64,000 bases of DNA from Chitinivibrionales bacterium (GTDB lineage Bacteria; Fibrobacterota; Chitinivibrionia; Chitinivibrionales; WJKA01): positions 32,001-96,000 of the forward strand of contig JBBRUX010000004.1 of NCBI GenBank assembly GCA_038247415.1, in the 5' to 3' direction. The notes beneath the pieces are model-generated. The model made no database searches and had not been told where the DNA came from. It saw only the letters and a program-made list of their open reading frames with translations. Made by a program: the position numbers and the translations under genes. Position 1 is the first letter of the stretch; every line of letters begins with the position of its first letter. Positions 1,768-5,379 of the stretch are shown here, piece after piece.

Positions 1768-2349
1768 TTAATGCTGCTCTTCGAGGCATTCAAAAGAATG
1801 AGCATACGTCAATTGCGCCACCGGTTCACCACACCGTTTTAATACCTCATGCCCCGCATCCCAGCCACCTAAGTTAGATTCACTATTGATATGCCCCACA
1901 TACCCAACATCCACAAGATCAAGCCCCCAGACAGTTGCCAAAAATTGGGAATATTCCGGCGATGCAAACGGATCATTGCGACTAAAAATTATCGTACCTG
2001 AAATATCGAGTGAATATCGCGGCAACGGTTGAAACGAGTCGAGACTTCTCAGCATTTCGCATGAGTCAAGATCTGCAGGCGCCACCAAAATAATTTCTTT
2101 GCAAAACGTTCTAATTTTATCAAGTGCTTTAGCAACGAGTATGCATCCAAGGCTATGAGCAATAATACGAACCTTGCCATTCCCACTCTGGGCCAAAATC
2201 TGGTTTACAAGAACTTCTTCCCAATCAGAATACAAAGGCTTTGCCCACTCTTTTTGATTGATACGAATATATCCATACTTCTGCTCCCACATCGTTTGCC
2301 AATGAAAAGCATCCGACCCATTAATTCCTGGAACTATAAATGTTTTCAT
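1768..2349 (-). CDS. RBBP9/YdeN family alpha/beta hydrolase
   Basis: IVPG..GS...HWQ, nucleophile AHSLG, SRNDP, GHIN..SNLGGW. Start moved to the ATG at 2349 (MKTFIV), which has a GAGG RBS. Confidence 0.88.
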   Translation of the reverse strand: MKTFIVPGINGSDAFHWQTMWEQKYGYIRINQKEWAKPLYSDWEEVLVNQILAQSGNGKVRIIAHSLGCILVAKALDKIRTFCKEIILVAPADLDSCEMLRSLDSFQPLPRYSLDISGTIIFSRNDPFASPEYSQFLATVWGLDLVDVGYVGHINSESNLGGWDAGHEVLKRCGEPVAQLTYAHSFECLEEQH

Positions 2350-2393
2350 ATCCTCTATCCTTTCCACAAAATTCTTACATTGCCGCTGTGAGA

Positions 2394-2660
2394 TCAAATT
2401 CCCGTGCCGTAATTAAAATGTTCATACAACGCACCCATCGCAACCAACTCATCCTTTCCTTCAACCAAAATATCAATCACTCGACCCGGTAGAGAAGAAA
2501 ACTCATAAAGATCAGAAACAGAATGCCCATCCGCATTAAAACTTTCCCCACGACTCATAACTATTTCAGATTTAAACTTTTTGCACGTATCTGCAAGCGA
2601 TTTTAGATTAAAAGCACTCTCAACCTGTTTCTTAGAGAGCTCAAAATGTGCAGAAATCAT
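2394..2660 (-). CDS. HPr-fold protein lacking catalytic His15
   Basis: 88 aa from ATG 2660. Aligns to HPr: KKFKSEI, ADGHSVSDL (Ser46 region), G.VIDILVEGKDE..AM.AL. Position 15 is Ser and position 17 is Phe. Confidence 0.7.
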   Translation of the reverse strand: MISAHFELSKKQVESAFNLKSLADTCKKFKSEIVMSRGESFNADGHSVSDLYEFSSLPGRVIDILVEGKDELVAMGALYEHFNYGTGI

Positions 2661-2716
2661 TGGGTTACCCTTACTATGCAGTAAAACTATGTTTATAAAC
2701 TTAATCAACAATTAAT

Positions 2717-2745
2717 AATATACAAAGATTTTTAGGAAGATGCAA
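2717..2745 (-). promoter_or_regulatory. sigma70-type promoter for the HPr-like/cys operon
   Basis: Minus strand TTGCAT-N17-TATATT, 56 bp upstream of the ATG at 2660. Confidence 0.55.
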
Positions 2746-2814
2746 GAAAAAAATTTAATTTCGAGGGATCTGGAAGACTACTCAATAGATCTCTTGGAAA
2801 TTCAGAATCTAAAC

Positions 2815-3018
2815 GCAGCGATGTACACCGTCGGCCCTCCTTACAGGCGCGGACATTTACCCTTGGCGTCACCTTCCAGTCCTGCTTTGCGCCACAAGGA
2901 TTTTTGTACCGGCTGGCGAAGCGGGAGTGTAGGAGGAGCCGCATCGGAACATATCCCAAGGGGACTTCCTTTGGGCGCCCGAAGGGGTGAGGCCCGACGG
3001 CGATGCCGGTACGCCCAG
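2815..3018 (+). ncRNA. unassigned structured RNA candidate (~200 nt, rod-like, 6S-like size)
   Basis: GC-rich island in AT-rich intergenic DNA. Nested helices 2828-2839/2989-3000, 2846-2850/2975-2979, 2860-2866/2956-2962, 2880-2894/2914-2926. G-U wobbles favour the + strand; a U-rich tract follows. Confidence 0.5.
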
Positions 3019-3262
3019 ATTTTTATGCTTTATTCTTATTTTGGAATTATTGACCCTTGGGGTGTAGACGGGAACAGAGAATTGGAACTCTGATTTGACA
3101 ATCATGGGAATCTTTAAATCCTGCAATCGTGTGCAGACAGTTGGGCGGGGGCTGTAGAATGTCCAGCAGGAACACGATGACTTTTAAATATACCTCGTAT
3201 TAAAAATGAAGATAGCGTAACGCGGCATCTAAAACGTCATGCCAATCTTTACAAAACAATTA

Positions 3263-3299
3263 GCCGCCATGCGGCCACAATGGCCAAAGTAATGGCGGC
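3263..3299 (-). terminator. hairpin after the beta-galactosidase gene
   Basis: GCCGCCAT...ATGGCGGC outer stem with inner GGCCA/TGGCC, 13 bp past the stop codon. Confidence 0.45.
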
Positions 3300-3312
3300 A
3301 TGAAATAAATCA

Positions 3313-5379
3313 TTAAGAAGAAAAACAAAAAACTCGCGCATCATATTCTTTTAAGGTAATTTCTTTAGAAACCGAAATCCCCGTTTCCACATCTATCAAG
3401 CATGCATCGCTAAGGTTTAAAATATGGGGTTTATGGGTAAAATTTAAGATAAATATAAATTCTTGAGAACCCGATGTACGCGTTTGGACCGTTACGCCCT
3501 GGGGAAGGTCGACCTGAAATGCTTTGCGAGGGCATGTTGACAAAACAACACCCTTTATAAAATCGTTATAAAAGCGTTCATCATTATGCGATGCGACATA
3601 ATAAGCACTTCCTTTACCAAAAGAATTTCTGGTAACAGCCGGTTTTCCTGCGTAAAATTGCCCGTCATAGTGCGCAAGCACTTCTGCACCTTCTGCATGA
3701 ATAAGATCGCACAAAAGCGTTGCCTGATAACTTCCCGATAGACCCGAGGCTCCATTTTGACATGCCGCAACCGGAACAGATTCATCGTCATACAATGCAT
3801 CGAGCTCTTCTGCCCAAATGCCAAGGACTTTGCGCAAGGGTCCAGGGAATCCACCCAAAAAGCAGCGATCATTGGGATCGGCTATTCCCGAAAGATAGGT
3901 ACAAATAAAAGTGCCCCCCTTAGCAACAAATGTTTCGATATGTTCTGCCACCCCTGGATGAATCATATACAAAAGGGGAGCAACTACAATCTTGTATTTA
4001 GACATGTCATCTGTGGGCCTAATACAATCTACAGGAACCCCTTGCGACCACAACGGAAGATAATATTCCAGAACCCTTTGGAGATACTCTTTTTTGTCAT
4101 TTCTTGCACCATGAATATCTTCGACAATCCAGCGATTTTCCCAATCGTAAACAATTGCAACCTCTGCCGGCGAAGTTGAGCCAATAATCGAATCCAATTT
4201 AGAAAGCATCTCCCCCACTTTGGCAACTTCCTTGAATACACGAGTATTTTCGTGCCCACAATGATCAACCACTGCACCATGAAATTTTTCTGCTCCCCCT
4301 TGACACTTTCTCCATTGGAAATACTGTACAGTATCTGCACCGTGCGCTACCGCTTGCAAGGCTTCGAGTTTAAGAATCCCAGGTCTCTTTAATTTACACA
4401 CTGTCCACCAGTTGGTTGCACTAGGAGAACTCTCCATCAACATAAAAGGCTTGCCGTGCTTAAATGATCGCATCAAATCGTGAGAAAATGAAGTTTCGGC
4501 TCCAGCTTTCCACATTTCAGCACGATCATTATATAAAGGATAACTATCCCATGAAACAACATCTACCTGCTCGGCCATTTTCCACATGTCAAAATTAAGC
4601 CCAATTCCAGCAAAATTAGTGGTAACGGGTACAGAAGGGGTGATTGCTTTGAGCGGAGCCCTCTCAGCTTTAAAAAAATCAATTGACTGGTGTGTCACAA
4701 ATCGCTTCCAATCGAGATTGAGGCCATGCCGTACCGTTTCGCCAATCGGGGACGGACTTTCGATCTGGCTCCATTCTGTAAATCTACTTCCCCAAAAATC
4801 GCATGACCAGGCCATATTAAGATGGTCTAAATTGTTTTCATACTTGGCCATAAGCCACTCTATAAACTTTTTCTGACATAAAAGGCAATGACATTCTCCG
4901 CTATATTCATTGGAAATATGCCATACTAATAAAGCTGGATGATCTTTATACCTCTGTGCAAGCATCGTATTAATAATCGCAACTTTAGCGCGATATACAG
5001 GCGAGGTGTAGCAATGATTGTGGCGAAGTCCGTGCAAAATTCTGCGCCGGTCGGCTCCTACCCTGAGCACCTCTGGATATGCAGCGCTCATCCACGGGGG
5101 GCGAGCCCCACTGGGGGTAGCCAAAACAACATAGGCCTTATTTTGTGCTATTTTGTCGAAAATTGTATCGAGCCAGTCAAAATCAAATTTTCCTTCGTGT
5201 GGCTCAAGTGCAGACCAACTAAAAATCCCAATGGAAAAGGAATTGCAATTCGCACTTTTTGAAAGGCGTATGTCTTCATCCCAGATTTCTGGTGTAGCCC
5301 GCCACTGATCGGGATTGTAATCTGCTCCATGCAAAAAATGTGGGAATCGTGGATTAATAGGTGGATACTTTTGTTGCAT
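3313..5379 (-). CDS. GH42 beta-galactosidase
   Basis: GADYNPDQW, FSWSALEP.EG, acid/base WHISNEY, Zn-binding CHCLLC, nucleophile LMESSP, YFQWR...EKFHG, trimerisation domain; no signal peptide. Confidence 0.95.
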   Translation of the reverse strand: MQQKYPPINPRFPHFLHGADYNPDQWRATPEIWDEDIRLSKSANCNSFSIGIFSWSALEPHEGKFDFDWLDTIFDKIAQNKAYVVLATPSGARPPWMSAAYPEVLRVGADRRRILHGLRHNHCYTSPVYRAKVAIINTMLAQRYKDHPALLVWHISNEYSGECHCLLCQKKFIEWLMAKYENNLDHLNMAWSCDFWGSRFTEWSQIESPSPIGETVRHGLNLDWKRFVTHQSIDFFKAERAPLKAITPSVPVTTNFAGIGLNFDMWKMAEQVDVVSWDSYPLYNDRAEMWKAGAETSFSHDLMRSFKHGKPFMLMESSPSATNWWTVCKLKRPGILKLEALQAVAHGADTVQYFQWRKCQGGAEKFHGAVVDHCGHENTRVFKEVAKVGEMLSKLDSIIGSTSPAEVAIVYDWENRWIVEDIHGARNDKKEYLQRVLEYYLPLWSQGVPVDCIRPTDDMSKYKIVVAPLLYMIHPGVAEHIETFVAKGGTFICTYLSGIADPNDRCFLGGFPGPLRKVLGIWAEELDALYDDESVPVAACQNGASGLSGSYQATLLCDLIHAEGAEVLAHYDGQFYAGKPAVTRNSFGKGSAYYVASHNDERFYNDFIKGVVLSTCPRKAFQVDLPQGVTVQTRTSGSQEFIFILNFTHKPHILNLSDACLIDVETGISVSKEITLKEYDARVFCFSS

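Follow-up and report, generated by a model that had tools for sequence, protein, structure and literature searches.

The window studied here is a stretch of 64,000 nucleotides from a Chitinivibrionales bacterium, and near its left end it contains a GC-rich island whose nature is the question of this report. An earlier note, made from the letters alone, had read positions 2815-3018 as a structured RNA on the + strand, and had offered as candidates a stand-alone non-coding RNA of 6S-like size and shape, a pseudoknotted or switching RNA, or a small non-autonomous element. That observation was confirmed in part and its interpretation supported in part, with the last of the three candidates faring best. 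The island is probably not a unique RNA gene, but belongs to a degenerate, internally deleted copy (2784-3043) of a dispersed, non-coding, non-autonomous repeat of the MITE or REPIN kind.

The island and its surroundings

That the island is real was readily established: GC content is 62.7% in 2815-3018, versus 27.8% in the AT-rich spacer on its 2783 side (2712-2783) and 43.5%, about the genome average, on its 3044 side (3044-3312). It is flanked on the left by an HPr-like ORF (2394-2711) and on the right by a GH42 beta-galactosidase gene (3313-5379), both on the - strand and hence opposite to the claimed + strand feature. To the left of the HPr-like ORF are a serine hydrolase and then, at 1-714 and 724-1464 of the - strand, two adjoining PAPS-reductase-family ORFs that probably form a pair of the cysH/cysD type. 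The placement of the feature upstream of the cys promoter was not confirmed as it stood: the gene directly downstream on the - strand is the HPr-like ORF, and the cys genes start only beyond it and the serine hydrolase after it.

The pairings described for the island could also be reproduced from the letters. Helix 2828-2839/2989-3000 has 11 Watson-Crick pairs of 12, 2846-2850/2975-2979 has five of five, 2860-2866/2956-2962 seven of seven, 2873-2877/2932-2936 four plus one G-U, and 2880-2894/2914-2926 nine plus two G-U and two mismatches. The alternative helices exist as well (2906-2913/3005-3012, 8/8; 2941-2946/3001-3006, 6/6), and a T-rich tract does follow the island, at 3018-3043. A fold clearly better than chance was not borne out: the + strand folded at -86.4 kcal/mol with a z of -1.92, and 8 of 200 shuffles were as good or better, while the - strand was likewise near chance (z -1.52, 11 of 200 shuffles). 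The extent also required revision, since coverage in the BLAST of the window against its own genome exceeded 1 in one place only, 2784-3043; the nhmmer match for this copy, C4:34796-35049, corresponds to window 2796-3049.

None of the ORFs overlapping the copy has a Pfam match, and no tRNA or tmRNA was found within window 2500-3400. Rfam 15, searched at gathering thresholds with the whole 64-kb window, gave no match, in keeping with the earlier statement that no family could be assigned, and a search at E up to 10 of 2650-3350 and 18 copy loci returned only chance-level matches (bablM, HOTAIR, mir-36 and similar). The bablM sRNA match, at window 3242-3315 on the - strand, was sub-threshold (26.8 bits against a gathering score of 38) and is most likely only the terminator hairpin of the beta-galactosidase gene just past its stop codon. 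A terminator-like hairpin at 3261-3277 belongs to that gene and precedes the element, which the gene thus does not require. Nor does the element qualify as an intrinsic terminator: a consensus scan found none on the + strand within it and a weak 5-bp terminator-like site on the - strand (2830-2816), the scan total being the number expected from shuffles.

A dispersed family with inverted ends

The tests that the earlier note had proposed were well chosen, and the decisive one among them was that of copy number. The window's own genome (G000; 3.84 Mb, 43.7% GC, 99 contigs) yielded 55 BLAST places with a 251-nt query around the element, 78 matches with an nhmmer profile built from 19 copies, and 76 matches at E up to 0.01 with covariance model R1 (157 positions, 36 pairs), and these copies are spread over about 45 contigs. 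BLAST coverage of the window copy is modular, 3-8 copies covering 2784-2873 and 13-28 copies covering 2884-3040, with 2937-2988 optional. The feature thus has dozens of relatives within the same genome.

These counts weigh heavily on the idea of a stand-alone, 6S-like non-coding RNA gene at 2815-3018 on the + strand. Its appeal is easily appreciated, the feature being about 200 nt long, GC-rich, predicted to fold as a mostly double-stranded rod like that of 6S RNA (RF00013), and followed by a T-rich tract. A 6S RNA has, however, one dedicated gene (or two) in a genome, and here there were some 57-78 copies in place of one, no match to the 6S or any other Rfam model even at E up to 10, a fold z of only -1.9, a rod built from inverted-repeat arms that lack a + strand preference for G:U, and a copy that is truncated relative to the family unit. 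We consider a single 6S-like gene very improbable, copy number refuting it in essence.

The repeat family is a main cause of assembly breaks in these metagenome-derived genomes. About 24 contig ends lie inside it, with identical overlaps of 141 nt, and 8 of 57 units have a partner of at least 99% identity, some of which are possibly one assembly node counted twice. In two other metagenome runs from the same study (X2 and X3), summed contig depth of the element relative to its flanks was about 17x and about 28x, respectively, values that are not a copy number. The multiplicity of copies, the near-identity of some and the contig breaks were together counted in favour of recent activity. Another dispersed repeat was also noticed (G000 C54:16560-16750 and C70:5400-5560), in which a conserved AT-rich tail comes after a GC-rich hairpin; it occurs at the ends of C56, C74, C14 and C89, where it breaks contigs as well, and is often tandem and often just upstream of main-family units.

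The family is small, non-coding, dispersed and multi-copy, and its anatomy is that of an element with inverted ends. These are conserved over about 35-40 bp, and each, read on its outward strand, runs from a GC-rich hairpin through GCCCA to a T-rich tail. Elements range from about 40 to 530 bp, the cargo between the ends varying from nothing to about 500 bp. In full elements of 470-530 bp (on C16, C24, C2, C9, C86 and C3), an AT-rich centre separates two arms, the left of which is inversely complementary to the right, so that these elements would fold as giant hairpins. At the other extreme, the mini-element at C86:313-367 is about 40 bp, with little beyond the terminal hairpin between 20-bp perfect inverted repeats; others with the same ends, about 85-110 bp, occur on C8, C24 and C34. 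The genome has about 12 pairs arranged as inverted dimers, and 11 distinct outward-facing end pairs are spaced 92-442 bp, while the unit also occurs singly. The earlier suggestion of a small non-autonomous element is well matched by these multiple copies, inverted ends and several size classes. The tails of several copies contain tandem repeats of a TCTTAT-like unit. Some tails (G000 C3:78385-78460, the end of C71, and C9 near 94250-94300) have expanded to tandem arrays of 6-15-nt T-rich units in up to about 8 copies, and a similar tandem tail, of TTTGA-type units, follows units in another genus (L092).

From its sequence, the window copy is a reversed short unit fused to a long unit that is missing its 5' half. 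The left arm (2784-2883, - strand) is a reversed short-form unit homologous to the left arms of the C3, C86 and C25 elements, and is matched by the covariance model at C4:34800-34892 on the - strand (23.6 bits). The right arm (2884-3017, + strand), delimited by alignment A1 and by its covariance-model match, is a 5'-truncated long-form unit: it retains the 3' strand of helix P3, hairpin H3, the optional insert, hairpin H4 and the conserved GCCCA end, and is without the 5' strand of P1, H1 and the 5' half of H2. H3 (2913-2925, + strand) has a GAA loop within a GCGAAGC word, and its stem, which covaries across copies, carries one mismatch here. The optional module of about 50 nt (2937-2988, + strand), which corresponds to the hairpins previously read at 2955-2975 and 2976-2989, is the inverted counterpart of left-arm 2841-2870; it is present in 13 of the 41 rows of A1 (the window row counted) and missing in short-form copies. 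The terminal hairpin H4 (2998-3008, + strand; CGGC, GAT loop, GCCG) also has a stem that covaries across copies, and beyond it lies the T-rich tail common to the family, a TCTTAT-type unit that here reads GATTTTTATGCTTTATTCTTATTTTGG (3018-3043, + strand). The rod fold of the window copy follows from the complementary arms of this inverted-dimer build.

The copy is decayed. Its covariance-model match (C4:34818-35027) scored only 36.2 bits, whereas most of the 59 matches above it scored about 97-172 bits; the outer end of its left arm is degenerate, with TAAACG at 2810-2815 where other copies have TGGGCG; and its nearest sibling is 85.8% identical across 141 nt. It is probably inert, and its role would at most be that of a passive structural spacer separating the HPr-like gene from the beta-galactosidase gene.

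A conserved fold, as DNA or as RNA

The search for homologues and covariation, also proposed earlier, found copies whose unit helices covary. The core unit is about 157 nt and has six helices with strong covariation: its structure comprises a 5-bp closing helix P1, hairpins H1-H4 and a long helix P3 with a tandem G.A/A.G motif, and the loops, that of H1 among them, are conserved on stems that vary. The structure, built by hand, was tested on alignment A2, consisting of 30 own-genome units and three homologues from other Fibrobacterota genomes. In A2, 85.1% of cells were paired, versus 34-44% when partners were slid by 1-3 columns, and changes on both sides were seen in 21 of 36 pairs (174 cells), a result reached by none of 500 shuffles. 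Among 54 distinct metagenome copies, 88.2% of cells were paired and 25 of 36 pairs had double changes, although the fitting of this alignment to the model works in favour of the structure. The H3 stem (helix 5 of A2) was 96.3% paired with two pairs showing double changes. H4, whose stem occurs as CGGC/GCCG, CGGG/CCCG, CAGC/GCTG and CGGT/ACCG, was 92.4% paired in A2 (helix 6) and 100% paired in the metagenome set (helix 7), where all four of its pairs had double changes. The fold is maintained by covariation across several families of one Fibrobacterota order.

Covariation also bears on whether the island might be a switching, pseudoknotted cis-regulatory RNA, i.e., a riboswitch-like leader for the adjacent gene cluster. 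The perfect alternative helices of the window copy invite such a reading, but the 8-bp helix 2906-2913/3005-3012 has no covariation behind it: across copies the 5' strand hardly varies, and where the 3' strand changes, the compensating change is found within H4. Furthermore, the element is directed away from both flanking genes, no Rfam model matches it, and family members adjoin unrelated genes. That diversity of flanking genes contradicts a leader function, and of all the readings considered this is the one to which we attach the least credence.

A far more serious contender, if still an unlikely one, is that the family consists of multi-copy functional structured RNAs (a 3'-UTR or intergenic stabiliser, a terminator, a processing element or a small RNA), with the fold maintained by selection at the RNA level and the window copy a weakened member. 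Strong covariation of six helices across genera is what such RNAs would be expected to show, as are conserved loops on variable stems and the tandem G.A/A.G motif, the G.A pairs of which were counted for RNA. The UNCG-type loops CTTCGG and CTACGG in an optional insert are RNA-like too. The local helices in G000 have 39 G:U versus 11 A:C, again counted for RNA, much of this excess coming from one fixed position. The independent metagenome set, however, has no G:U excess, its local helices containing 27 G:U versus 41 A:C, in 9 versus 10 columns, and this was counted for DNA. The same absence of an RNA-type asymmetry applies to pairing between the arms. Alignment of the left arm with the complementary sequence of the right showed 5 G:U-type versus 10 A:C-type mismatches in the window copy, and 71 versus 76 over eight full elements, which was counted for DNA and does not uphold the + strand G-U preference that had been proposed.

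A further feature of the unit is the word GCGNAGC. On the sense strand it occurs 36 times in 41 own-genome units and 42 times in 54 metagenome units, while the complementary word occurs 0 and 4 times, respectively. Words of this type are described as exceptionally stable DNA mini-hairpins (PMC13037366, PMC3201870), and their repeated use on the sense strand was counted for DNA. Of the six public runs in which the stretch is present, none is listed as RNA. On balance, single-stranded DNA is slightly favoured over RNA as the folded form.

Genomic context supplies arguments of both kinds. The copies are intergenic, only 6 of 59 unit midpoints falling within crude ORFs, and their ends tend to lie close to where convergent genes stop: in G000, 13 termini out of 38 are within 8-59 nt of such a stop codon, and all seven convergent cases in other genomes are at most 42 nt from it. 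By this placement many copies would be co-transcribed, which was counted for functional RNA, but it is also expected for insertions in short spacers at the 3' ends of genes. Against functional RNA are the unbiased orientation of units with respect to the genes beside them (the four upstream/downstream orientation classes count 17/9/8/8 in G000, and 3/3/3/3 in 18 loci of other genomes), inverted ends and size classes of a kind usual in mobile DNA, the near-identical copies that break assembly, and, at the window locus, the terminator-like hairpin that the beta-galactosidase gene already possesses. No protein family was shared by the neighbourhoods of more than four unit-carrying loci (272 ORFs from about 100 loci); one cluster of five loci proved to be without the unit, the pattern having matched coding DNA.

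Patchy occurrence across the phylum argues against functional RNA as well. BLAST with the full unit against 40 relatives gave only one weak genome match, and as BLAST is nearly blind outside the own genome, a covariance model was required to see relatives. Each of the eight other genomes that were searched singly with it contained between 7 and 86 copies (G043, 40; G041, 7; G012, 7; G148, 55; G138, 41; G034, 86; G008, 53; G016, 38). When 150 other genomes, taken evenly from the phylum, were searched, 21 had a match at E up to 1e-4: 5/8 in family f3, 8/39 in f5, 2/4 in f4, 2/8 in f9, 1/4 in f2, 1/1 in f6 and 2/55 in f10, both of the latter weak. The window's own family, f1, had none in six genomes. 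A pattern scan of one genome per species added three more Fibrobacterota assemblies and two chance matches in coding DNA, and viral contigs gave no core-pattern matches. One unit in G043 is absent from the matching locus of G148, a member of the same genus, where the spacer is too diverged for boundaries to be read; this difference and the patchy presence make for a distribution that fits mobility. Another GC-rich, hairpin-dense repeat was seen beside units in genus g22 (L096:1917-2106 in G043, with about 30 matches in G148), where it may belong to a larger composite element.

Mobilisation, known relatives and meaning

Given the preference for a mobile repeat, how might it move? The family would spread, or would recently have spread, by transposition, the mobilising enzyme presumably acting in trans and recognising a folded single-stranded end. 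Neither full nor mini elements had a visible direct repeat of the target-site-duplication kind at their ends, the exact boundaries of which an empty site would fix. Nor was a clean empty site found: among the contigs of four runs over 2000-3800, none bridged the element and no joint skipped the whole of it, the joints seen being short-form junctions from other copies. With neither of these hallmarks in hand, transposition is something we infer.

Candidates for the enzyme were sought in the own genome, which had no matches for TnpB (PF07282) or for IS4/IS5-type DDE transposases (PF01609), and for IS110 (PF01548) only a sub-threshold match inside a 1121-aa frame. There were four rve-type genes (PF00665; on C93, C52, C92 and C58), none of them beside a unit. 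The sole reverse transcriptase match (PF00078) was a 182-aa fragment away from the units; this ORF (G000 C5:47225-47773, L082:1726-2274) has only the C-terminal half of the domain and is probably a gene fragment. A single Y1 transposase gene (PF01797) was found at C19:51888-52208, with flanks unrelated to the units. It lies in a GC-rich island (G000 C19:51700-52900) with an ORF of about 330 aa carrying the Y1 domain (45.8 bits); the island is bounded by inverted repeats of its own, is no relative of the repeat family and appears to be an insertion in its own right. Across 151 genomes the presence of Y1 was independent of that of the element: Y1 is missing from G034 and G037, with their 17-86 copies, and in family f1 all six genomes have Y1 and none has the element.

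The elements themselves were equally uninformative as to a partner. None of the end pairs encloses a transposase-sized ORF, contig C86, with its several units, carries ordinary genes only, and no parent insertion sequence with matching ends was found in any genome examined. The own genome is 96% complete and fragmented, and the partner could therefore be unassembled. In G138, two outward-facing units (L125:2970-4179, contig C287) have between them about 850 bp of AT-rich DNA, in which a 147-aa ORF without a Pfam match is found; either a composite element with a passenger gene or two independent insertions could account for the arrangement.

Comparison with known systems begins naturally with REP sequences and REPINs. 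A REP unit is a hairpin of about 20-40 nt with a GTAG motif. The unit described here, at about 150-230 nt and with six helices, is far longer. The two otherwise resemble each other, both being GC-rich palindromic intergenic repeats that occur as inverted dimers around a spacer, are non-autonomous, number tens of copies per genome and persist in a lineage, with no target duplication seen, at least as REPINs are portrayed in PMC3116915 and PMC3337134. The same papers describe REP and REPIN elements as mobilised by RAYT (Y1) transposases (PMC3116915, PMC3337134), whereas here no RAYT-type gene is flanked by units and the Y1 domain, as noted, goes its own way.

Elements derived from IS200/IS605 were a second possibility. 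Such palindrome-associated elements have subterminal hairpins and no target duplication, and folded single strands are their likely substrate. The present family shares the subterminal hairpins at its ends and the lack of a visible target duplication, and folded single strands would likewise be its probable substrate, but its ends are symmetric inverted repeats and not distinct left and right ends on one strand, and it has no association with TnpA or TnpB. The local GC skew of G000 is very strong (+/-0.05 to 0.10 in 40-kb windows) and thus replication strands could be assigned for most contigs. The sense strand coincided with the G-rich strand in 11 of 31 units (p = 0.15), i.e., without significant replication-strand bias, and this speaks against a mechanism of the IS200/IS605 kind, in which the lagging strand is the target.

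RtT RNA (RF00391), which is linked to a tRNA gene with a repeated 3' end, also has repeated non-coding units with hairpins of the C-GAA-G type, and CCCGAAGGG and GCGAAGC words occur in the rttR of E. coli as well. The RtT covariance model had no match at E up to 10 in the window or the 18 copy loci, only one of which has a tRNA, and the exact words in common with the E. coli tyrT-rttR region reached 10 nt in the window element and at most 12 nt in the 41 units. The resemblance to tRNA-linked repeats thus comes down to C-GAA-G hairpin words of 10-12 nt. E. coli genomes gave no BLAST match at E up to 10, in a search that is blind to an 18-nt word. REPIN-RAYT systems, IS200/IS605 derivatives, RtT or tRNA-linked repeats and 6S RNA were each considered, and by the tests of membership the element belongs to none of them.

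The family also resembles the bacterial MITEs with modular cargo, among them Correia, ERIC, BOX and RUP. These are non-coding, have terminal inverted repeats and size classes that arise from internal deletions or insertions, are intergenic and often near gene ends, and are predicted to form long hairpins when transcribed. The present element is alike in all of these traits. It is unlike MITEs in that no target-site duplication was seen at its ends, in that none of the genomes examined yielded a parent insertion sequence with matching ends, and in that its internal fold has been kept by compensatory changes across several bacterial families, which to our knowledge is not a defining trait of Correia, ERIC, BOX or RUP elements. 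Ordinary MITEs do not usually show such structure-preserving covariation, which a functional RNA would explain as well. As no Rfam 15 model matched and full-text literature searches on Fibrobacterota or Fibrobacteres repeats turned up nothing relevant, the family seems to be a variant, so far undescribed, of the structured repeats of bacteria.

The feature in the window is in itself nothing out of the ordinary, being a repeat copy that has decayed, and recognising it as such removes a false lead: similar GC-rich islands in G000 will mostly be members of the same family, for which covariance model R1 provides a practical mask. It is the family that unites traits that are rarely joined, i.e., the anatomy of a mobile element, a covarying multi-helix core and the absence of any recognisable transposase, and finding the enzyme that copies it, from a DNA or an RNA substrate, could reveal a new route of mobilisation. 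We tentatively raise the further prospect, to which we give perhaps one chance in a few, that the unit of about 157 nt represents an undescribed class of structure-dependent replicator in the Fibrobacterota, a self-closing multi-helix module of single-stranded DNA or RNA copied in trans by an enzyme other than Y1, RAYT, TnpB, IS110 or IS4/5. The GCGNAGC words on the sense strand and the short tandem repeats in the tail would fit such a replicator. If that is what it is, it would persist in its lineage for long periods, as REPINs do, possibly with a role at the level of the host.
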